Virus record (IMG/VR): IMGVR_UViG_3300036832_000548
Location: 18,592 to 82,591 of that record
Reading direction: 5' to 3' (one strand)
Source of the DNA: a virus
Length of the DNA: 64,000 bases
Shown: positions 42,837 through 57,408 of the stretch, in pieces
Layout of the letters: every line of letters begins with the position of its first letter
How positions within the stretch are numbered: the first letter of the stretch is position 1
Made by a program: the position numbers and the translations under genes
The notes under the pieces: model-generated
The model's database searches: none
Told to the model about the DNA's origin: nothing
The model's input: the letters and a program-made list of their open reading frames with translations, nothing else

Positions 42837-43412
42837 ATGGCGCGACAAAAGTACAAGAAGCTCTACACGGCTGACGATTGCTCGACGCACGTCTGGGCGC
42901 TCGTCAAAGACGCGCGGGAGAACGTCGAGTTCACGCTCAAGCTCGACGCCGCGTTCATCCAGGACTCGCGGCGCGGCGTGCCGTGGAAATGCCTGCTGGC
43001 CAACGGCACGGCTGCTATCGCCCATAGCGGTCACAATCCGTTCAGCCATCCGGTCAAGTTCGTTTACGTCGAGGGGTCGCACCTCTACGTCCTGACCCGC
43101 GTGTCAGGCCGCAACCGGCGTGAGTATCCGCTGGCCATGCGATATCGCCACAATTTCACAAAGACCTTGCGGCAATTCGACAACATGACCAAGGCCCAGT
43201 TTGTGGAGCTGTTTGGCGATGCGGGTGTACAGATCAGGCTGAAGCCACCCATCCGCCATCAGCGCAGTGCGGAGCAGACTGAGAGCCGCCAGCAGCCCGC
43301 GCGTGCGCCCTCGACTGAGCGCAGGCTGGTTGGGGCCATGCGGCGCGCCCGTGACGCGGGCCTGCTCAACCTTGAGCACCTTGGCGGGCCTAGCCCTGCC
43401 ACGGCGGCCTGA
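42837..43412 (+). CDS. Hypothetical protein
   Basis: GAGGAGG RBS. Confidence 0.7.
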   Translation: MARQKYKKLYTADDCSTHVWALVKDARENVEFTLKLDAAFIQDSRRGVPWKCLLANGTAAIAHSGHNPFSHPVKFVYVEGSHLYVLTRVSGRNRREYPLAMRYRHNFTKTLRQFDNMTKAQFVELFGDAGVQIRLKPPIRHQRSAEQTESRQQPARAPSTERRLVGAMRRARDAGLLNLEHLGGPSPATAA

Positions 43413-43445
43413 CGACCCTCTCCCGGAGGGGAGGTGCGGCGGTGA

Positions 43446-43476
43446 ACCGGGTGCCCGAAAGGGTGCCCGGTTTTTT
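43446..43476 (+). terminator. Intrinsic terminator
   Basis: ACCGGGTGCCC-GAAA-GGGTGCCCGGT hairpin followed by a T run. Confidence 0.75.
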
Positions 43477-43494
43477 ATGGGGAGAGAGACGTAT

Positions 43495-43598
43495 CGTCTC
43501 GGCCAAGGCGCTCTTGATACCCATGTCCCGGATGCCGAGACGGGCCGCCATCGGCCACAAGGGGAATGATGCCCACCTGCTTGATGCCGGTGGCGGCC
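43495..43598 (+). ncRNA. Orphan TIGR-like guide doublet (2 dual-spacer stem-loop units)
   Basis: CGTCTCGGC-CA-N9-TGATACCCA-N9-T-GCCGAGACG then GGCCGCCATCGGC-CA-N9-TGATGCCCA-N9-T-GCCGGTGGCGGCC. Confidence 0.8.
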
Positions 43599-43942
43599 AC
43601 CTAAAAGAACGAGCCGACCTCCGGGGCGTTAAGAGGCCGGCTCGTCCTGCTTGGTAACCCGGCTGGTCGAGGGCTGGGCAACCGCGGGGATCATCGCACC
43701 GGCGCGGCTGTGTTGTCTAGGCCTATCCCTGCCGTTGCCGGCCCATCCACAAGAAACAAACGTAGACCCGACATTTGGCCCGACAGAAACTGGAAAGGTT
43801 GGTGTATTCAAGGTGTTGAAGCACCCTATAAGGGCGAAATAGACCATCAATCGCTGCCCATCGCTGCCAAAAGCATTGTGATTGCAATGGGACTTATTAT
43901 CTGGTCTGATGTCAGCAACCACCGACCCGACAAGGACCAGAC

Positions 43943-48427: not shown

Positions 48428-49045
48428 CTATTCGGATGCAGTATTTTTGTCCGTTTTGAGTGGGATCATCGGCGGATCGATATTCTCAAGCGCTTCAGCA
48501 ACAAGCCGGTCGCTCAGGTTCATCCGCGCCGTCAGATCCTTGATCGTATCGGTGACTTGCGTGCCGATCTTCGATGACATCTCGACCTCACGGAACGCCT
48601 CCGCGCCTTTCTGCCGAATGAGCCGCGCGGTATCGATGACTGTCTTGAGCACGGTTTGCGCTTGGTCGTGATACTCGCGGCCCATCTGCTCCAGTGTTTG
48701 CGCGCATTGTTCGTAGCCGATCACGACGGCATGCGCGGCGATGGCGGCACTGCGGGACACGTCAGGCGCGTGCGTAACGTAGTCAGGCAGCGGCCCCAGC
48801 ACCTTAGTGGCATTGTCCTGCCGCTGCTCAGGCGGCGCGTAATCGGCTGGGACCGGGACGTGTGGATCATCGAAGGTTGGACCTTTGATCCGCTCAGTCA
48901 CCATTCTTGGCGCGCGCTTTCCTGCCGCATTGACCTCAGCTTCAAGCGCCGCAGCAACGGCGGCAAACCCTTTCTCTTCCGGCGCTGCGTTCGGCAACAG
49001 TGCTTTCAAAGGGCTCTTCCCACGCACCACTGATGTGTCAGTCAT
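48428..49045 (-). CDS. Hypothetical protein
   Basis: AGGAG RBS; coiled-coil C-terminus. Confidence 0.65.
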   Translation of the reverse strand: MTDTSVVRGKSPLKALLPNAAPEEKGFAAVAAALEAEVNAAGKRAPRMVTERIKGPTFDDPHVPVPADYAPPEQRQDNATKVLGPLPDYVTHAPDVSRSAAIAAHAVVIGYEQCAQTLEQMGREYHDQAQTVLKTVIDTARLIRQKGAEAFREVEMSSKIGTQVTDTIKDLTARMNLSDRLVAEALENIDPPMIPLKTDKNTASE

Positions 49046-49222
49046 TTCGATCTCACTCCTTTGGTTGATCTTTGCAGGTTCCGAGGCGTATCAAGCGACC
49101 CTACCCACCACAGGTCGTCGCGCCGATTGGCTTCCGCCCACACAACGGCATCGTGTTCGCTCTGGAACGGCCCCAGATAGCTGAACCCGTCCTGCGGATT
49201 GCCGATGATAATGATGCAGATC

Positions 49223-50344
49223 TTAGGAACGCCCATCGGTTCCCTCAGGATGCGCTTGCTGCTCGTCCCAGCCTGCGCGCCACTCAAGGGCTTCGCGCGC
49301 CCGTGTTGGATCTCGATACTCGATCGGGGTTGCTTTGCGCTGCATGCCCTTGGCTTGGTCAGCGCGACCGCGTTCGCGCGCAATCACCAGCAAATCTGGG
49401 GCGGTCGCCTGTTGGGGTTCTACTTTCGTTTCGGATTTTGCAGCCGTTTGCTGCGGTTCCTGATTCGTTTCCGTGTTCGAATCATCGGAGTGCTGCTCGC
49501 TTGGCGGCGATTCCGGTTCTGTCAAGTGGTCGACGATGGTTCGGTCAGCGTGGGCTTGGTCGTGCGCTTCCTGCACGGTGTCTGCTGGTGGACCGGCGAA
49601 ATGATCGAGCGTCGCGCCGCGGGCGGTCTCACTGCGAGCGCGGGACTGGGCGGTCGTCTCGCCCTCTTCATCTTCGTACATCTCCTCATCTTTGCGGATC
49701 AGATCATCGAGGTCAGACGACATGGGCAGAAGCCGCGACAGGACCCGGATCGCGGTCTTCATCTCCATTTCTTCCGTCCACATTTTCCAAGGCGCGTCCT
49801 CGCGCGAGGCGCGGCTCATGTTGCGGCGCTTGGCAATCTCACTAGGCGATAGTGGCGCGATAAAAACCCCGCCGTCCTTGGTCCCGGCTGCGGCGTAGAC
49901 AAGACGCTTCTTCTTGTCGGTGTGATCGTCGCCCGGAATATGTTTGAAATGCGGGCCGTTCTCGTCAGTCCAGTGTTCCCAATGGTCGCCATCGTAAACG
50001 ATATCCGTCGTCACCCATTTAAATTGCCCGCTATTGCGGAATTTTTTGAGCAGGCCTTGGTACATCGGCAGGTATTGGACCTTGTTCTTAAATGGCACCA
50101 ACGCGGCCTCGCGACCGTCAGGCAGCAAACCGTCCTGGGCACAACGCAGTGCGGAGTTGAACAGCGAGCCGCGGTCACAGGTGAGCAGGTCGTTATTGAG
50201 CTGCACGGCGGTCAGCACAACGCGGAAGAACCGTTCGGCTGGCATGTGCTTCGGGAGCGCATGTTGAAATTGCACACTGCGATCGTTGAGTTGATCGCGC
50301 AGGACCACCATCGGGTGCGCGGGTTTGTTGGCTTGATCGTTCAT
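49223..50344 (-). CDS. recT: RecT-family single-strand annealing protein
   Basis: ALPKHM..ERF.RV..SL..CAQDGLLPDGREAALVPF..MYQGLLK..PW...EEM..KT.IR.L. Confidence 0.92.
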   Translation of the reverse strand: MNDQANKPAHPMVVLRDQLNDRSVQFQHALPKHMPAERFFRVVLTAVQLNNDLLTCDRGSLFNSALRCAQDGLLPDGREAALVPFKNKVQYLPMYQGLLKKFRNSGQFKWVTTDIVYDGDHWEHWTDENGPHFKHIPGDDHTDKKKRLVYAAAGTKDGGVFIAPLSPSEIAKRRNMSRASREDAPWKMWTEEMEMKTAIRVLSRLLPMSSDLDDLIRKDEEMYEDEEGETTAQSRARSETARGATLDHFAGPPADTVQEAHDQAHADRTIVDHLTEPESPPSEQHSDDSNTETNQEPQQTAAKSETKVEPQQATAPDLLVIARERGRADQAKGMQRKATPIEYRDPTRAREALEWRAGWDEQQAHPEGTDGRS

Positions 50345-50368
50345 TCGTTTTTCTCCTTTTGATTAGGT

Positions 50369-51038
50369 GCCGCCGAGGGCAGTCGAGCGTCGGGCATCAA
50401 GGCCTCGCAGGCCCTCGGCGGCGATCTCGGCACCGATTTCCTGGGCATCATAGGACGTTTGGCCGAGATTTCTTTTTGGTGCCGCCGAGGGCAACTTGAA
50501 CTTGGGCATCATGGGTGACATGGCCCTCGGCGGCTTGCTCGGCGTGCAGTTTTTGGGAACCCACTAATTTCTGGCCAAGCAATTTCTTGGAGTTGGTGCC
50601 GCCGCGGGCAACCCGAAGGGGGGGATCATTCGGGGCATGGCCCGCAGCGGCGGTCTCGGCAGGGGATGCATGGGCATCACGAAGTTCGTGGCCGAGATTT
50701 TTGCGCTTGCGTTTTTTGGGGCCGCCGACGGCGCTTGCGATTTGGGGATCAACCGAGCAATGGCCATCGGCAGCGACCTCGGCACCCATGCCATGGGCAT
50801 CAAGAACTACATGGCCGAGATCATTGGTGCCGCCGAGGGCAGAGGAATCCTGGGCATCATGCGCTGCTTGGCCATCGGCGGCGATCTCGGCAAAGCGTCG
50901 CTGGGCATCATGGATCCGTTGGCCGAGACCATTCGAATAGATGCCGCCGGCATGGCTCCTCTGGGCATCAGCCGCATGCTGGCCGACGGCGATCTCGGCA
51001 GCGCCATTTTGGGCATCATTGCTCATGTGGCCGAGATC
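50369..51038 (-). ncRNA. TIGR-like stem-loop array A (6 doublets, 12 dual-spacer units)
   Basis: Repeated GATCTCGGC-CA-N9-TGATGCCCA-N9-T-GCCGAGATC / GCCGCCGAGGGC-CA-N9-TGATGCCCA-N9-T-GCCCTCGGCGGC with unique spacers. Confidence 0.88.
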
Positions 51039-51974
51039 ATTCGTGGCTTGATCGACCCACTGTTCCCACAGGTCCACCAAGAATTGTTTGAAGGCGATCC
51101 GCAATCCGTCCTGGCGGCGATGACCGGGCGTCCATTCGGGATGCGATATCTCAGTGCGTATTCGGCGCGCGGCATAGACCTCGCCATAGCGTCCGTTGGG
51201 ATGACCTTCATCGGCCCCGGCCTTCGCTGCCGATATCCACTGCTTGTTCACGAGCCACAAGGCGATCGTGTACATCGTGGCGTATCGCTCACCCGAAAAC
51301 GGATTCGCGATCCATTCCTCCTTATCCAACTTACGCGGCCGCCACGTTTCCCGTTTCCAAGTCGATCCGGCGTGGCCATCATACGGTGCAAAGCCGAGAC
51401 GCTTCCAAAGCTTCTCCGGGTTCGCGTAGTTATCGAGCGGGCCCGCCTCCGCAACGATCAGGGCAAGGCCGAGGATGCCCGCGCCGGGGATCGACTCAAC
51501 CCACGGTGCAACGGGCAACTGCGCCGCGAGTTCCTCTATTCCAGCCGTTGAGTCGTCTCGCACTTCATCCATTGGCCCACGCGCGATGTCAGTCTTCTGC
51601 ACAATCGTGAGCAGATCGTGGGGCAAGTCCGTTTGAACAATCTCGCCGCTGCCGTTGGCGGCCTTCTTGTACACCGCGCGCGCCTCCTTGATCATCGCGG
51701 CAACCTTCTTGTTGTATTCCGCGCGAATGGCTTCCGACTCAGTCGGCTTCCAATCTGTAAAGTTGCGCCGGATATAGGACTCAAGAGCGCGGTCGATCTT
51801 TTGTTGAACTTTGATCGCGAACTTGCGCCGTCGCGCCAGCGTCACGATGTTCTTCACCAGCTCGTCGCGAGCACGAATTTGCAGCACCAGCGAAGGCAAG
51901 CCAATGGCGGAATTGCGCGCATCAATCAAAGCTTGAGCGCGGCGAGTGCGGTCGGCATTTGTTTGCTGTGTCAT
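50448..51974 (-). CDS. tasA: IS110/Nop-domain RNA-binding protein without nuclease domain (TasA-like); C-terminal about 195 aa read through array A
   Basis: Coiled coil, then LPVAPWVESIPGAGILGLALIVAEAG..YANPEKLWKRLGFAP..YGEVY..GHRRQDGLRIAFKQFLVDLW; no N-terminal DEDD/RuvC; AAGGGA RBS. Confidence 0.8.
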   Translation of the reverse strand: MTQQTNADRTRRAQALIDARNSAIGLPSLVLQIRARDELVKNIVTLARRRKFAIKVQQKIDRALESYIRRNFTDWKPTESEAIRAEYNKKVAAMIKEARAVYKKAANGSGEIVQTDLPHDLLTIVQKTDIARGPMDEVRDDSTAGIEELAAQLPVAPWVESIPGAGILGLALIVAEAGPLDNYANPEKLWKRLGFAPYDGHAGSTWKRETWRPRKLDKEEWIANPFSGERYATMYTIALWLVNKQWISAAKAGADEGHPNGRYGEVYAARRIRTEISHPEWTPGHRRQDGLRIAFKQFLVDLWEQWVDQATNDLGHMSNDAQNGAAEIAVGQHAADAQRSHAGGIYSNGLGQRIHDAQRRFAEIAADGQAAHDAQDSSALGGTNDLGHVVLDAHGMGAEVAADGHCSVDPQIASAVGGPKKRKRKNLGHELRDAHASPAETAAAGHAPNDPPLRVARGGTNSKKLLGQKLVGSQKLHAEQAAEGHVTHDAQVQVALGGTKKKSRPNVL

Positions 51975-51998
51975 ATTGTGTGTCCCTTGTTGTTAGGT

Positions 51999-52100
51999 GC
52001 CGCCGAGGACATTCGACGTATGGGTATCACCCGAGCAACGGCCCTCGGCGGCGATCTCGGCGATCATACAATGGGCATCACTGGGGCTGTAGCCGAGATC
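51999..52100 (-). ncRNA. TIGR-like array B (1 doublet)
   Basis: Same repeat architecture, intergenic upstream of tas. Confidence 0.85.
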
Positions 52101-52102
52101 AT

Positions 52103-52795
52103 TTAGTGTCCTTCGATATACTTTTGCAGGCTCGCCACCGTCGCAACGACTGCGGTGTTCAACGCAGCCGGGGCTTGCTCGCGAGCTTCCCGATCAAACT
52201 GCTCGAGCACATTTGCTGGGACGATATCGCGGACCCGCGCATCCGTATTTGGCACGCGCGCGTAGCTGCGGATCTTGCACATGAGCAGCGTGTCGGCAGT
52301 CTCCTGCAGTGTGCTCAACACGGTCGAACCGACGACCGCAATGCGCTCCTCAATCGCGGCGTCCAGCTCCCGCCAGTGCAGGTCGCCAACCGGCGCGCCG
52401 TTGATCCTGCGGCGGTCATAGATGAGGCCAACGCTGCGCATCATCGCGGTTCGGTTGATCGCCTTGTCGCGGGCTGTGGGTGATTTGGTGCCGCCGCTGG
52501 CGTTTCTGCTTTGGGCATCAAGTCCACGCTGGCCAGCGGCAGCGGTCTTGGCACGCAGCGTGTGGGCATCAGCATGTACGCGGCCAAGATCATTCGAAAT
52601 GCGTTTGAGATAATCCAGCGCGAGCCCGCCGAGTAATTCCGGGCGGCGTTGAATTTTCTTGACGAAGCCGGTCAAGACTTTCGTCGGGTCGTTTTTGTTG
52701 TCATTCAACAAATTGACGGCAGCGACCCGCAGCTCGTTAGCGACGGTGTCGAGGCCGGCTTTCTTCAGAGCAGCTCCGATAGATGTGTCAGTCAT
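52103..52795 (-). CDS. Hypothetical helical protein containing an in-frame guide doublet
   Basis: GGAG RBS before ATG 52795; open across array C. Confidence 0.7.
   Translation of the reverse strand: MTDTSIGAALKKAGLDTVANELRVAAVNLLNDNKNDPTKVLTGFVKKIQRRPELLGGLALDYLKRISNDLGRVHADAHTLRAKTAAAGQRGLDAQSRNASGGTKSPTARDKAINRTAMMRSVGLIYDRRRINGAPVGDLHWRELDAAIEERIAVVGSTVLSTLQETADTLLMCKIRSYARVPNTDARVRDIVPANVLEQFDREAREQAPAALNTAVVATVASLQKYIEGH
52490..52591 (-). ncRNA. TIGR-like array C (1 intragenic doublet)
   Basis: Same architecture with compensatory stem changes. Confidence 0.8.
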
Positions 52796-52818
52796 TTTGT
52801 GTTCTCCGTTCAAAAGGT

Positions 52819-53033
52819 GCCGCTGAGGGCACCAGTCCCGTAGGCATCAACAAACAGATGGCCCGCAGCGGCGATCTCGGCAAAACTTGGTTGGGCATCA
52901 TGGATGCGATAGCCGAGATCATTTGTGTGGGTGCCGCCGAGGGCATTGCGTCGTTGGGCATCAGGCGTTCCTGGGCCCCCGGCGGCGGTCTCGGCACCGA
53001 TCCTCTGGGCATCAACGCGCGGATGGCCGAGAT
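52819..53033 (-). ncRNA. TIGR-like array D (2 doublets)
   Basis: Same repeat architecture. Confidence 0.87.
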
Positions 53034-53038
53034 TTGTG

Positions 53039-53734
53039 TCATATCGTTACCCTGAAGATTTCGCTGAATGGCGGGCGGTGCGCCGCGTCAGATAGCTCGT
53101 TGCTGACGACTAGCACGCGATATCGAAAGCCGCGGCTTTGATTGATTACGCTGGTTCGCGCGAGATAGTTTTTCTGGAGCTGTTGCAGCCAAAAACTGGC
53201 GTGTTGCAGTTCCCCGTAAATCTTCTGCCGTCGGGCTGCATGATTGATCCGACGAAGAACGGACCCCTCATTGAACACAACGATGAAATCGCTGGCTGCA
53301 ACGTCGCGCGCCACGATCCGCATCGCGCCAACGCCATGCCCGGTGTAGCCGCAGGGATCTGATAGCCATAGGACGTAATCGTACCCACCGGCGCGTACGA
53401 CATCGACGACATCGGAATGCGTCTCGGCAATGAGGGCACTCGGAAACCGTTTGCGCAGCAAAAGCCGTTGCCTCCGACTCGCATCGCACAGGCAAACGTC
53501 CGCGCTCACGGCGAAGGCGATGTTGGTGACAATCTGCGGCGTTGGCGTCGACACAACGCCGTCATGCAAAACGCCGATACCATCACCAGCATTGGCATCG
53601 ATCAAAAGAAGTTTGTCGTGCAGATGAGCGGTCCTGACTTGCGCTTCAACGATCTTGCTCAACAACGAGTGTTTGATCCACGACCCCTCGCTGCGGCCCG
53701 CATTAGCGCGTTCGTTGGTCGAGGCGTGGGTCAT
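53039..53734 (-). CDS. SAM-dependent methyltransferase-fold protein (TcmP/GMT-like)
   Basis: SWIKHSLL..LIDANAGDG..LSDPCG, similar to the KH/IDxxAGxG/DPxG motifs of TcmP-like proteins. Confidence 0.55.
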   Translation of the reverse strand: MTHASTNERANAGRSEGSWIKHSLLSKIVEAQVRTAHLHDKLLLIDANAGDGIGVLHDGVVSTPTPQIVTNIAFAVSADVCLCDASRRQRLLLRKRFPSALIAETHSDVVDVVRAGGYDYVLWLSDPCGYTGHGVGAMRIVARDVAASDFIVVFNEGSVLRRINHAARRQKIYGELQHASFWLQQLQKNYLARTSVINQSRGFRYRVLVVSNELSDAAHRPPFSEIFRVTI

Positions 53735-53743
53735 CGTGTAGGT

Positions 53744-54406
53744 GCCGCCGCAGGCAGAGGCCGAGTGGGCATCATCGTCGTTGTGGCCCGCGGCGGCGAT
53801 CTCGGCGTTCCGCGTTTGGGCATCAAGCGATCGTTGGCCGAGAATTGTTGAAAGGCTGCCGCCGAGGGCATGACGATTTTGGGCATCAACGAACGACTGG
53901 CCATCGGCGGCGATCTCGGCAAGCGCCTTCTGGGCATCATCTGGCCTGTGGCCGAGATCATTCGAATGGGGGCCGCCGAGGGCAAGCACAGGATGGGCAT
54001 CACGGGTCGCGTGGCCCCCGACGGCGATCTCGGCACCCGAGTCATGGGCATCAAGTGGTCATGGGCCGAGATTATAGGTGCCGCCGAGGGCAACGATCCA
54101 TTGGGCATCACGCTGGCAACGGCCCTCGGCGGCGATCTCGGCATTCCATCATTGGACAGCAAGTCGTCGTTGGCCGAGAAGATTTTAGGTGCCGCCGAGG
54201 GCGCACCTCCCATGGGCATCAAGGACGGCGTGGCCCGCGGCGGCGATCTCGGCAACGGGTGGCTGGGCATCAGCCGTCTACTGGCCGAGATCATTCTGAT
54301 AGATGCCGCCGAGGGCATGAGCTGCTTGGGCATCAGCCAGCTTCTGGTCCTCGACGGCGATCTCGGCAGAGCTCGTATGGGCATCACTGGTGGATTGGCC
54401 GAGATC
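53744..54406 (-). ncRNA. TIGR-like array E (6 doublets, 12 units)
   Basis: Same repeat architecture; starts at the stop codon of the YqaJ gene. Confidence 0.9.
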
Positions 54407-55325
54407 ATTTGGTTGCTTCTTTACGTTCGTGAATTCGGAGAACGCGGACCTCGCGTGGGAGGACCGTATAGCCGGAAAAATTCGAGGTTTTGTAGGTGAC
54501 TTTCCATCCGTTAACGCCGGAGACTTGGGCCGCGTCACCCAATTTGTATTTTATCTGAGCCTCGATCTCGTCTTTGCGTTGGTCGAGCGAAGCGATCCGT
54601 TGCATCAGGGCGGCGCGTTCCGCGAGGATTTCCGGCAGCTCGTTGTCGCCAGACATGTCGACCATCTTATCGGTGGCTTCGCGTGGACTGATCAACTTGA
54701 TCAGCTCAGCATCCTTGCCGAAATCGGGCGCCGGCTCGTGACCGATCCGCATTAGCTCCCAAAAATTCTGGGCGGCTGTCTTGATCCGCTCCTCGGCACC
54801 GGCGTGGCGTGGCAATTCCCTGATGCAGACATCGAGATCATAGTTGTAAACCACGGCGGCCACCCCGAAGGCGGCGTCGGCCAGCAGCATCTCGGTGAGC
54901 AGCTGCAGCTCGATCCACAATGGGGTGATATTTCCGTTGTCCCAATCGCGCTCAAAGATGTGCGGATAGGCGGTTTTAGTTTGCAGGATGCCGAGGCCGC
55001 GCGGATCGCCGTGGATAAAGAAATCTGGCGTAGCGCCCAACTGCAGCTCAGGGGCACGGAAATATGTCTGGCATTTCTCAATGATCCAATCGTCGTGTTC
55101 CTCTCCGACACGCTGGGCAACGACGTTTTCGAGCAGGCGCCCGCGGCGGATCGGTTTCGTTTCCTCGAATTCGAACTCCATCCCATTGTGCTGATAGTAA
55201 AGCTTGAGCGCGGTGACATACGGGTGCAGGCCGAACAGCGCCGCCACCACGGAGGCGGTGATGTCCGGCTTGCGCAGCTCCAGCCACTGCGGGCGACTCA
55301 GGATTGGGATGCGTTCGACGATCAT
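54405..55325 (-). CDS. YqaJ/lambda-exonuclease family protein
   Basis: WLELRKPDITAS..RGRLLE..GATPDF..LQTKT..QL. Confidence 0.9.
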   Translation of the reverse strand: MIVERIPILSRPQWLELRKPDITASVVAALFGLHPYVTALKLYYQHNGMEFEFEETKPIRRGRLLENVVAQRVGEEHDDWIIEKCQTYFRAPELQLGATPDFFIHGDPRGLGILQTKTAYPHIFERDWDNGNITPLWIELQLLTEMLLADAAFGVAAVVYNYDLDVCIRELPRHAGAEERIKTAAQNFWELMRIGHEPAPDFGKDAELIKLISPREATDKMVDMSGDNELPEILAERAALMQRIASLDQRKDEIEAQIKYKLGDAAQVSGVNGWKVTYKTSNFSGYTVLPREVRVLRIHERKEATK

Positions 55326-55372
55326 GGGTGTTCCGAATCGAATAGGGCAATCTTGCCTCTGAGCCGCGCGGC

Positions 55373-55389
55373 GTCAACAAGGAGTTGAC
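55373..55389. promoter_or_regulatory. Palindromic operator-like site in the divergent early control region
   Basis: GTCAAC-AAGGA-GTTGAC; contains TTGAC -35-like hexamers on both strands; another TTGACA at about 55432. Confidence 0.5.
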
Positions 55390-55493
55390 TCTTTCCCCGC
55401 TGTCCTTTCTCCGGGGGTGGCAACCCTAGTTTGACAACGTTAGGGCTACTCGGTTAATTTTTTCTTGCTTGGTAACCCTTGGTCGATATTCAC

Positions 55494-55763
55494 ATGGCAA
55501 AAGAGAGACTTGACGCAGCCATTCTGGCGCTGCGGGAAGAGAATTGGCTACCTAGAATCGCGCAGCGACTCAATTTGACCCGGCAGGCGACCTCGAAATG
55601 GCGCCGCGTTCCGGCAGATCGTGTGCGCGAGGTCGCCAAGATCACGGATTATCCCCTGGCATTTTTACGTCCTGATCTTTACGAGGACATGCCATCCAAG
55701 CCGCCCAAGCTGGCGAAGCCGAAAGCTCGCCGCCGCAATCATCGTGCTGTTGCGCATGCTTGA
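55494..55763 (+). CDS. Cro/YdaS-like HTH regulator
   Basis: IAQRLNLTRQATSKWRRVPADRV..LRPDLY. Confidence 0.85.
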   Translation: MAKERLDAAILALREENWLPRIAQRLNLTRQATSKWRRVPADRVREVAKITDYPLAFLRPDLYEDMPSKPPKLAKPKARRRNHRAVAHA

Positions 55764-56359
55764 GGGGTATTATGGGCCAGCCATTCGACGGTCTTCCGCG
55801 CGCCCATTTCCGCGCAATCCTGGCTGACCCGCCGTGGAACTTTGAGACCTATAGCGAGGCTGGTCGCGATCGTTCTCCCAATTATCCGCTGATGACGGCG
55901 CAGGGCTTGCGCGATCTGCCGGTCAAAGACCTCGCGGCGCCTGATTGCGTGCTGTTCATGTGGGTTACATGGCCAATGCTCGAGCAATCGCTGGCGCTGA
56001 TTCGCGCGTGGGGGTTCACCTACAAGACGTGCGGGTTTGACTGGATGAAGGCGCACGCGGGCCAGATCGATATGTTCCGCGACGACGCGGATGGCCAGGT
56101 TGGGCTTGGCTACTGGACGCGCAGCAACAGCGAGCCGTGCCTGTTGGCAACGCGCGGCAAGCCCAGACGGGTCAACGCTGATGTCCGCATGGGCATCATC
56201 GAGCCGCGGCGCGAGCACAGCCGCAAGCCTTATTGCATCTATGACCGCATCGAGCGGCTCGTCCAAGGACCATATATTGAATTATTTGCTCGCTGGCAGC
56301 GTCCGGGCTGGACCGCTTGGGGCAATGAGACTGACCGATTCAAGGAGGCTGCGGAGTGA
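55760..56359 (+). CDS. MT-A70 family adenine methyltransferase
   Basis: ILADPPW; LFMWVT; AWGFTYKT; GLGYWTRSNSEPCL; REHSRKP; IELFAR. Confidence 0.92.
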   Translation: MRGIMGQPFDGLPRAHFRAILADPPWNFETYSEAGRDRSPNYPLMTAQGLRDLPVKDLAAPDCVLFMWVTWPMLEQSLALIRAWGFTYKTCGFDWMKAHAGQIDMFRDDADGQVGLGYWTRSNSEPCLLATRGKPRRVNADVRMGIIEPRREHSRKPYCIYDRIERLVQGPYIELFARWQRPGWTAWGNETDRFKEAAE

Positions 56360-56995
56360 ATGTCCTCGATTTATTCAGCGGGATCGGCGGCTTCTCACTC
56401 GGACTCGAACGGGCCGGAATGCGAACTACCGCTTTTTGCGAGTCTGATGCGTTCTGCCGGCGCGTCCTCGCCAAGCACTGGCCCGACATCCTCTGCTACG
56501 ACGATGTCACAACTCTCACTGCCGCTCGACTTAGCGCCGATGGCATTGACAGCATTGATCTCATCTGCGGCGGATTTCCCTGCCAAGACATCTCCGTTGC
56601 CGGCAAAGGCGCAGGACTTGCTGGCGAGCGATCGGGCCTATGGCTCGAGTTCGCGCGAATTGTTGGCGAGCTACGACCCCGTTACGTCATCGTGGAGAAC
56701 GTCGCAGCTCTGCTTGGACGGGGACTATCAACAATTCTCGGAGACCTGGCCGCGCTCGGGTTTGATGCGGAATGTGGGTCGAGTGGTTGATGGGCCTGCC
56801 GCTCGAGTGGACCGTCGTAAGCGGCTCATCGCGCTTGGAAACGGACTCGTCCCGCAAATCCCGGAAATCATTGGACGCGCCATAATGGATGCTGAGCGCC
56901 CATACGACTTGCACGATGACATCAACAAGTCGCTGAAGGTTTGTTACGACGAGATCAAGGCGCGGCAGGCTGCGGGCGGTCCCGGCTGGCCATGA
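56356..56995 (+). pseudogene. C5-cytosine methyltransferase split over two frames with an apparent internal deletion
   Basis: Motifs I (DLFSGIGG), IV (GFPCQD) and VI (ENV) in 56356-56790; motif X (LGNGLVPQI) in the +1 frame; motif VIII and TRD absent. Confidence 0.7.
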
Positions 56996-57408
56996 GCGCG
57001 CTGCAACAAAAAGATCTTTTCACTAAACGCTGGCGGCATGTTCGCGAGCTGGACCCGTATGAAGATCAGATACAGGAAGCCCTGGTTGCGCAATTGCAAT
57101 GGGGCAAGCTGCGCGCCGGCGTGGTGTTCTTTCATGTTCCCAATGGCGGCAAGCGCGATAAGCGCACTGCTGCCAAGCTGAAACGTATGGGAGTGTTGCC
57201 GGGTGTCGCTGATCTAATATTTCTGTGGGCAACCGGCATGATCCCGCGCGTGTTATTTCTTGAGCTGAAGGCCAAGGGCGAAGGTTTATCGAAGGAACAG
57301 AGACTGTTCCGCGACAATGTGAAGACGGTGCGGTGCTACTTTGAGTGCGCTGACAACATCGATGACGCGCTGACGATTCTGGATAGATACAAGTTGCTGC
57401 GTGGTTGA
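56992..57408 (+). CDS. VRR-NUC domain nuclease
   Basis: EDQIQ..FHVPNGG..GVLPGVADL..LELK..LSKEQ. Confidence 0.88.
   Translation: MSALQQKDLFTKRWRHVRELDPYEDQIQEALVAQLQWGKLRAGVVFFHVPNGGKRDKRTAAKLKRMGVLPGVADLIFLWATGMIPRVLFLELKAKGEGLSKEQRLFRDNVKTVRCYFECADNIDDALTILDRYKLLRG

Follow-up and report, generated by a model that had tools for sequence, protein, structure and literature searches.

Stem-loop guide arrays within a phage recombination operon appear to be kept translatable

Guide arrays, those of CRISPR and TIGR systems alike, are usually treated as non-coding, and a locus in which they stand between and even within the genes of an operon raises the question of how the message that carries them is read. 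We analysed a window of 64,000 nucleotides (nt) that is part of the 82,591-bp IMG/VR virus record IMGVR_UViG_3300036832_000548. On its minus strand an operon of this soil phage runs from position 55325 to position 49223, beginning with a yqaJ-like exonuclease gene and ending with recT, with geneX, geneY and a 508-codon open reading frame (ORF) containing tas in between (order yqaJ, geneX, geneY, tas, recT), and stem-loop TIGR-Tas arrays are spread throughout it. A simple consensus scan of positions 48,500-57,000 detected no sigma-70-like promoter and no minus-strand terminator, and the genes from yqaJ to recT are probably co-transcribed as one message. We propose that stem-loop arrays built into operons have been selected to stay translatable, aiding ribosome traffic and coupling across the operon, a reading to which we assign a probability of about 0.55.

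The guide units have the layout stem 5′ arm-CCA-N9-TGATGCCCA-N9-TG-stem 3′ arm, and 30 units of the window match the pattern stem-CCN-N9-TGNNNNCCN-N9-YG. Two stem types strictly alternate, H1 with a short stem (ATCTCGG/CCGAGAT) and H2 with a long one (GCCGCCGAGGG/CCCTCGGCGGC), each pair forming a doublet. Loop-to-loop distances are 51, 63, 51, 60, 51, 57, 51, 63, 51, 63 and 51 nt in array E, 51, 63 and 51 nt in array D and 48, 60, 51, 57, 51, 72, 51, 117, 61 and 51 nt in array A (Table 1). The step from H1 to H2 is 51 nt except for a single 48, and that from H2 to H1 is 63, 60, 57 or 72 nt, plus 117 nt over a degenerate unit and one step of 61 nt. The original prediction for this DNA held that, with a doublet core of 99 nt, 10 of 11 inter-doublet linkers are multiples of 3, and we obtained the same count (15, 12, 9, 15, 15 / 15 / 15, 9, 24, 18 nt). 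Given a chance of 1/3 for each linker, at least 10 of 11 has a probability of 1.3e-4, although the linkers are not fully independent because the 63-nt step recurs. The exception, a 13-nt linker corresponding to the 61-nt step, is the only non-multiple of 3 and lies where tas goes on to read a loop TGA and stops, again as had been proposed.

The arrays of the window are covered by reading frames that are joined to the neighbouring genes. ORF E is linked at both ends by ATGA, to yqaJ at its start and to geneX at its stop, the yqaJ TGA lying inside the ATGA that opens both ORF E and the first repeat. ORF D is joined to geneX by ATGA and to geneY by an 8-nt overlap, ATGACTGA, and the tail ORF links the tas stop (ATGATG) to recT (ATGA). 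These joints had all been claimed beforehand and stand with one correction, namely that the tail ORF may start at 50451 and not just at 50448. Array C had been left out of that account and is covered by two mini-ORFs. The ORFs E, D and tail read the repeat in what we call frame a (xTG ATG CCC), the tas tail and the doublet within geneY in frame c (GAT GCC CAx), while the third frame (b) runs into the loop TGA every time. Between yqaJ and recT no more than 18 nt of ~6.1 kb lie outside an ORF path. Within the window alone only the spacing exceeds chance, and the ORFs taken by themselves are weak evidence.

Several units of the window depart from the common form. The second doublet of array D has CTA as its box C and the loop TGATGCCTA, and is overlooked by a strict finder. 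In the first H2 of array A (50943-50990, minus strand) both arms are 3 nt shorter, giving an 8-bp stem and a loop-to-loop distance of 48 rather than 51 nt, a paired deletion by which both pairing and reading frame are kept. The degenerate H1 of array A (~50540-50590, minus strand) has GGGTTCCCA in place of the loop TGATGCCCA and a stem containing wobble pairs; the strict finder overlooks it as well, and the 117-nt step across it keeps the frame. Compensatory stem changes occur within the window at 52849, 52571, 52520 and 50628. Inter-doublet linkers that are purine-rich, in arrays 3′ of tas, encode patches rich in Lys, Arg and Ser (PKKRKRKN, KSKKR, SRKRK) whichever frame is open; they are found at 50448-51038 (minus strand) in the window, in the related proteins P0002-P0009 and in the loci L055, L072, L016 and L074, while the linkers of array E are without them. 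Such linkers could be an RNA feature (for example a processing site) or a protein feature.

To place the window within its family we collected 251 relatives of its Tas protein at E ≤ 0.001, the 8 nearest of which (52-82% identity, 405-523 amino acids (aa)) all have array-encoded tails. A close-relative search with the single Tas protein found none in viral or genome contigs, and relatives came with an alignment query, by which 24 viral loci, 80 metagenome loci and 1 locus from a metagenome-assembled genome (MAG) were fetched. A search for the locus of the nearest relative via P0002 gave no match in viral contigs, and tblastn did not find Tas among 50,697 records of cultured phages. The sole match in 185,579 species genomes was the MAG locus (L106), a 4.6-kb contig (DATGCX010000444.1) assigned to Xanthobacteraceae, which is a weak hint of the host of this phage group and did not yield a tractable host. 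Units were called with fixed 9-nt spacers, a TGNNNNCCN loop and at least 5 of 6 stem pairs, and family statistics, from which L106 is kept apart, cover 67 non-redundant loci including the window (66 further loci), with 743 units and 1,486 spacers.

The family data establish that the units are selected RNA hairpins, as follows from the covariation of their stems. Positions 1-7 of the stem are paired in 87-98% of 726 units compared with 40-63% when partners are shuffled, and GC, CG, AT and TA pairs are all found at most positions. The strand of tas carries almost every unit (13 minus-strand calls among 105 loci), the exception in the window being a plus-strand orphan doublet described below.

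The period of these hairpins favours multiples of 3 throughout the family. This is true of 338 of 525 steps shorter than 100 nt and of 141 of 184 doublet periods, measured from H1 to H1 with each linker taken once. The original prediction had named random linker lengths in homologous arrays as the outcome that would count against it, and outside the window 133 of 176 are multiples of 3. With each locus contributing only its distinct period lengths, multiples of 3 make up 87 of 127 values (binomial P 6e-16), with peaks in the spectrum at 102, 105, 108, 111, 114 and 117 nt. Some loci have single steps that are off the multiple while the sum is on it (49+62, 52+65).

Spacer sequences carry a matching signal. 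Stop codons make up 58 of 2,972 spacer codons in frame a (1.95%) and 71 of 2,972 in frame c (2.39%), compared with 153 of 4,458 (3.43%) in frame b, which can never be read, so that the constraint on spacer choice that had been suggested from the window is borne out mildly. We utilized two null models for whole arrays, one shuffling nucleotides within the variable blocks and one rotating them, which keeps local oligonucleotide content. The rotation null was brought in because the reverse strand also beats the shuffle null (27 open segments versus 16.7 expected), which indicates that shuffling overstates significance, and we report both. Among in-phase segments of at least 4 units, the window included, frame a or c is wholly open in 38 of 40 where 17.6 (shuffle) or 22.3 (rotation) are expected; for segments of at least 8 units the count is 15 of 16 where 3.9 (shuffle) or 6.9 (rotation) are expected. 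None of 200,000 simulations reached either observed value. Segments that stand alone, with no gene fusion, are open in 19 of 21 cases (10.0 expected), those fused to tas in 7 of 7 (3.3 expected) and those fused to another frame in 12 of 12 (9.1 expected). The alternative forward frame contains stops at about the expected rate. In the locus L004, 22 units extend over 1,305 nt with no stop in frame a, 7 in frame c (5.7 expected) and 8, 11 and 15 in the reverse frames.

The junctions of the arrays with their neighbours provide evidence of a different kind. An array was scored as coupled at its entry when a start codon lying no more than 60 nt from its first unit, in a frame that stays open across this unit, overlapped by 4 nt the stop of an upstream open frame of at least 60 codons. 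Such an NTGA overlap is present in 57 of 111 arrays compared with 10.4% of 2,220 random control positions in the same loci; a further 32 arrays are entered as in-frame extensions of the upstream frame and 2 through a 1-nt overlap. Histograms of the offset between frames have a sharp peak at exactly 4 nt, both upstream (25 of 63) and downstream (29 of 77), while every other offset has a count of at most 5. Of arrays with at least 2 units away from contig ends (n = 112), 75 are each contained in one ORF from start to stop and 81 in one frame without stops. Stops inside arrays (n = 39) include 18 loop TGAs, 17 of which have an overlapping start codon, and a same-strand gene follows 60 of the 65 arrays of at least 4 units. 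These overlaps do not depend on shuffle nulls, and nothing else indicates as strongly that the array ORFs act as cistrons.

What appears to be under selection is the passage of ribosomes and not a peptide product. Of the 40 segments, 25 are open in frame a and 25 in frame c, including 12 that are open in both, and in L011 frame a serves for H1 and frame c for H2 within one ORF. Tails of tas are in frame c in P0002-P0009 and in frame a in P0052 and P0096. The window and the relative with 82% identity have wholly different spacer-encoded residues. The GC content of third codon positions is not raised in the open frames (0.58 and 0.56, against 0.69 in tas), and a pattern of higher GC at first than at second positions tracks the open frame weakly and is suggestive at most. 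We saw no avoidance of TTA, CTA and TCA, with 49 in the open frame and 47 in the other, and codon choice does not explain the excess of open frames on the reverse strand. It is the use of either frame, together with unadapted codon usage and unconserved residues, that argues for a constraint on passage.

Ribosomes leaving an upstream gene would then re-initiate, or simply carry on, and traverse the hairpins until they reach the start codon that follows, using the open frame (a or c) that is tied to the flanking cistrons by a 4-nt NTGA overlap or by in-frame fusion. Coupling of transcription and translation would in this way be kept over several hundred to ~1,300 nt of structured, otherwise non-coding RNA, Rho-type polarity would be avoided and ribosomes would be delivered to downstream starts located beside stable hairpins. 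Some of the same transcripts would be bound by Tas and cut into guides, and the array peptides would be by-products. Transcription-translation coupling is established, and it is from this that we infer the benefit against polarity. At the level of the family, selection for translatability is well supported by the comparison of sequences, and avoidance of polarity together with translational coupling is probably the best reason for it. The proposal that this DNA serves as both message and guide precursor gains from the stem covariation, the periods, the open frames and the 4-nt overlaps; under this proposal ribosomes would occupy the arrays.

A number of observations weigh against translatability as the selected property. 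Given the period of array E, chance would leave frame a or c open across it with a probability of 0.45 (rotation) or 0.16 (shuffle), and on reading, the conserved parts of the repeat prove free of stops in frames a and c and in all reverse frames. The loci share ancestry, so that counts are not fully independent. The period breaks the frame in 43 of 184 cases, and step pairs that contain a non-multiple sum to a multiple of 3 in 38 of 105 distinct pairs, a slight excess over the ~25-33% expected by chance. On the untranslated reverse strand open frames are in excess as well, though less so (27 of 40 versus 20.6 expected, P 0.003; 8 of 16 long segments versus 4.5), which means that our nulls are somewhat liberal. 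Coupled entry is absent from 20 of 111 arrays, and among arrays of at least 8 units a single frame spans only 12 of 23. Arrays without a downstream gene are too few (5 of 65) for terminal arrays to be compared with operon-internal ones. geneY has its own GGAG upstream of its ATG, as recT does, and coupling is therefore not strictly needed for these two genes.

The first of these points, with the stop-free repeat and the reverse-strand excess, could be taken to mean that there is no selection for translation at all, the ORFs arising incidentally from GC-rich repeats in whose conserved parts five of the six frames are free of stops, and the period being a consequence of unit duplication. Plus-strand ORFs of 195, 209, 141, 141 and 304 aa, which we regard as by-products, also span the arrays (53845-54499, 50515-51551). 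We disfavour this account and consider it very improbable, since it leaves many different period lengths clustered on multiples of 3, a forward excess (38 versus 22.3) far above that of the reverse strand, stops at the expected rate in the alternative forward frame and exact 4-nt overlaps at both array ends, 5-fold over control. A better case, although still a doubtful one, can be made for the array-encoded stretches as selected parts of proteins, that is disordered tails or linkers of Tas, of the geneY product and of small array proteins, for instance basic tails that bind nucleic acid. The basic linkers between the units of tas tails (PKKRKRKN, KSKKR) in the window and P0002-P0009 would suit this, as would the geneY doublet, which recurs at a similar position in several loci, and the open state of all seven tas-fused segments, and in its main-text passages a September 2026 preprint (Xu et al. 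2026, bioRxiv 10.64898/2026.09.09.750476) places intragenic tigRNAs in disordered Tas regions, in BlTasA in a wedge loop. A protein function is harder to reconcile with frames a and c being used about equally, which yields unrelated peptides from the same RNA motifs, with unconserved spacer residues in relatives 82% identical and with the lack of codon adaptation. Many tas genes stop ahead of the array, arrays that stand alone and have a start and a stop of their own are open as well, and in 29 of 77 arrays the open frame ends at the start of the next gene, which a C-terminal tail would not need.

Translation and guide maturation might instead act as a switch, in which ribosomes melt the hairpins and preserve the mRNA intact until accumulated Tas captures them and processing severs it, giving negative feedback on tas, recT and other genes. 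Open frames would be needed here so that an untouched transcript works as mRNA, and the severed messages would include that of tas upstream of its stop. This explanation shares the sequence facts of the one we prefer. In its favour, the tas ORF of the window runs through 9 guide units before it meets a stop and is likewise array-tailed in the 8 nearest relatives, so that processing would leave a message lacking a stop, and Xu et al. (2026) suggest that tigRNA maturation may be linked to the translation of Tas. Nothing in the sequence however separates such a switch from plain anti-polarity and coupling, tas has its own stop before the array in ~40 of 64 loci, and the main-text passages of that preprint identify neither the processing sites of stem-loop arrays nor the RNase; we consider the switch unlikely. 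A broader scheme, which we offer tentatively and consider rather unlikely, would have the arrays obligatorily translated, with ribosome passage (leaving YqaJ, Tas and RecT mRNA intact) competing with capture by Tas (yielding guides and a severed message). Tas would thereby autoregulate the recombination operon, and guide repertoire, spacer sequence space and expression of recombination genes would be coupled through one RNA.

The tas product of the window matches Pfam Transposase_20 below the cut-off of that family (E 0.0013) and PHROG 4285 with an E-value of 1.2e-7. A profile built from 27 Tas relatives matches TasR (PDB 9MTY, the TasR ribonucleoprotein of Faure et al. 2025) with an E-value of 0.001 in colinear stretches and TasH with an E-value of 0.0027, although the similarity is weak. 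The Nop/IS110-type RNA-binding domain that characterises stem-loop TIGR-Tas systems is thus recognisable from sequence at this weak similarity. We detected no nuclease family in the Tas of the window, which is why we call it TasA-like, an assignment that is probable by inference from its sequence. If arrays within operons must stay translatable, gene callers would go on joining them to neighbouring genes and so inflate the length of Tas, here to 508 aa where ~312 aa are real. In several relatives it is the 5′ and not the 3′ end of tas that an array joins in frame, so that the protein gains up to ~140 residues at its N-terminus (P0002, P0097; L010, L051, L053, L077), and tblastn aligned the first ~30 residues of the window Tas with array-encoded sequence in L004. 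The N-terminus of Tas may derive from an old guide unit.

The genes yqaJ, recT and geneY surround the tas and array module in varying order across the loci. No gene stands beside tas more often than geneY, which tblastn matched there in 24 of 66 loci; geneY has no Pfam or PHROG family, Atlas gave nothing usable, and we regard its product as a candidate partner of Tas with no function assigned. Arrays are embedded at the matching place of geneY in other loci, and in several of them (L023, L075, L077, L047) the in-frame doublet lies near residues 70-105, as in the window. geneX had no Pfam match even at E ≤ 5 and no PHROG match, which leaves its identification as a methyltransferase unsupported, and tblastn matched it in only 1 of 66 loci (L014, opposite strand). 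Upstream, the frame of geneX stays open as far as a GTG at 53989, over the last 4 units of array E in frame c (53744-53989, minus strand), and because frames a and c are both open over this stretch it is uncertain where geneX really begins.

The orphan doublet on the plus strand has re-coded stems that still pair (9 and 12 bp) and the loops TGATACCCA and TGATGCCCA. It lies directly 3′ of a strong terminator-like hairpin with a T-run (~43442-43478), which itself comes after a gene at 42837-43412. It shows no coupling to an upstream gene, and a 71-codon ORF covering it (43442-43657) is unremarkable for 2 units.

Table 1 Features of the TIGR-Tas locus in the window (positions of the window; codon or residue counts under Length)
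Feature	Position	Strand	Length	Remarks
yqaJ-like exonuclease gene	54405..55325	-	306 aa	Pfam YqaJ, E 3.5e-10; from ORF list
ORF E	53731..54408	-	225 codons	frame a, over array E; no Pfam or PHROG family
array E	53744..54407	-		12 units = 6 H1/H2 doublets; 11 of 11 steps multiples of 3; stops: frame a 0, frame c 4
geneX	53039..53734	-	231 aa	no family; from ORF list
ORF D	52788..53042	-	84 codons	frame a, over array D
array D	52819..53032	-		4 units = 2 doublets
geneY	52103..52795	-	230 aa	no family; recurrent tas neighbour
guide doublet inside geneY	52490..52589	-		frame c; both stems re-coded, pairing kept
mini-ORF 1 over array C	52064..52102	-	12 codons	frame a; begins right behind geneY TAA, ends in ATGA
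mini-ORF 2 over array C	51993..52067	-	24 codons	tas frame; from ATGA of mini-ORF 1 to TAA 18 nt before tas ATG
array C	51999..52099	-		1 doublet between geneY and tas
tas ORF	50448..51974	-	508 aa	
tas proper	51039..51974	-	~312 aa	Nop/IS110-type guide-binding domain
array-encoded continuation of tas ORF	50448..51038	-		frame c, 9 units; ends at loop TGA just past the single 61-nt step
array A	50369..51039	-		11 clear units + 1 degenerate H1 near 50540-50590
tail ORF	50341..50451	-	36 codons	frame a, over end of array A
recT	49223..50344	-	373 aa	Pfam RecT, E 2e-31; own GGAG Shine-Dalgarno
orphan guide doublet	43494-43598	+		7 kb from locus

Some of this organisation belongs to a known kind. 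The main-text passages of Xu et al. (2026) describe stem-loop units in the 5′ end, 3′ end or interior of tas "without disrupting the reading frame", with a conserved CUU at the stem base as a processing mark, and array A, with 9 units in the tas ORF, is therefore of a sort already reported. The units of the window differ in lying mostly outside tas, in separate ORFs (225, 84 and 36 codons) whose overlaps connect neighbouring genes, and inside geneY; arrays between other operon genes are not mentioned in those passages. Coupled bridging ORFs outside tas with 4-nt overlaps, a family-wide 3-nt period and frame-specific depletion of stops are, as far as the passages of the TIGR-Tas literature drawn on here go, new. 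Faure et al. 2025 (PMC12045711) describe tandem units with two 8-12-nt spacers, box C (CCA), box D (UG) and palindromic flanks, and the window shares with their TasA systems the unit layout, the sub-arrays, an effector with a Nop domain akin to the RNA-binding domain of IS110 and carriage by phages. The arrays presented in those passages are non-coding, with sub-arrays split by an 'intergenic region' and dual-repeat arrays bearing terminal terminators, whereas those of the window consist of strict two-stem doublets, are interleaved with the genes of a recombination operon and are covered by reading frames.

More distant parallels exist in other guide systems. Archaeal C/D box small RNA (sRNA) genes overlap and are co-transcribed with mRNAs, the C box supplying the upstream stop in 23 cases (Lui et al. 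2018, PMC6009581, in the part of that study drawn on here), just as the first repeat of the window, ATGATCTCGG, supplies the stop of yqaJ, and in both settings guide and coding functions constrain each other. Those sRNAs are singles at gene ends, have often lost their targets and guide RNA methylation; in-frame tandem arrays joined to both neighbours, or binding of DNA, are not part of that description. In CRISPR loci, boxA/Nus antitermination is reported to shield long untranslated arrays from Rho termination and polarity (Stringer et al. 2020, as cited in PMC7862264), so that an RNA element modifies RNA polymerase, whereas the solution proposed here would be an array that can be translated.

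If arrays within operons must stay translatable, spacers would be filtered by coding as well, with in-frame stops excluded and insertions or deletions tolerated only as multiples of 3, and arrays for TIGR tools may need to follow the same rule when expressed from operons. A translatable array would also be a second natural answer to polarity in long untranslated arrays, besides boxA antitermination, and the finding offers a testable handle on how one RNA is partitioned between message and guides.

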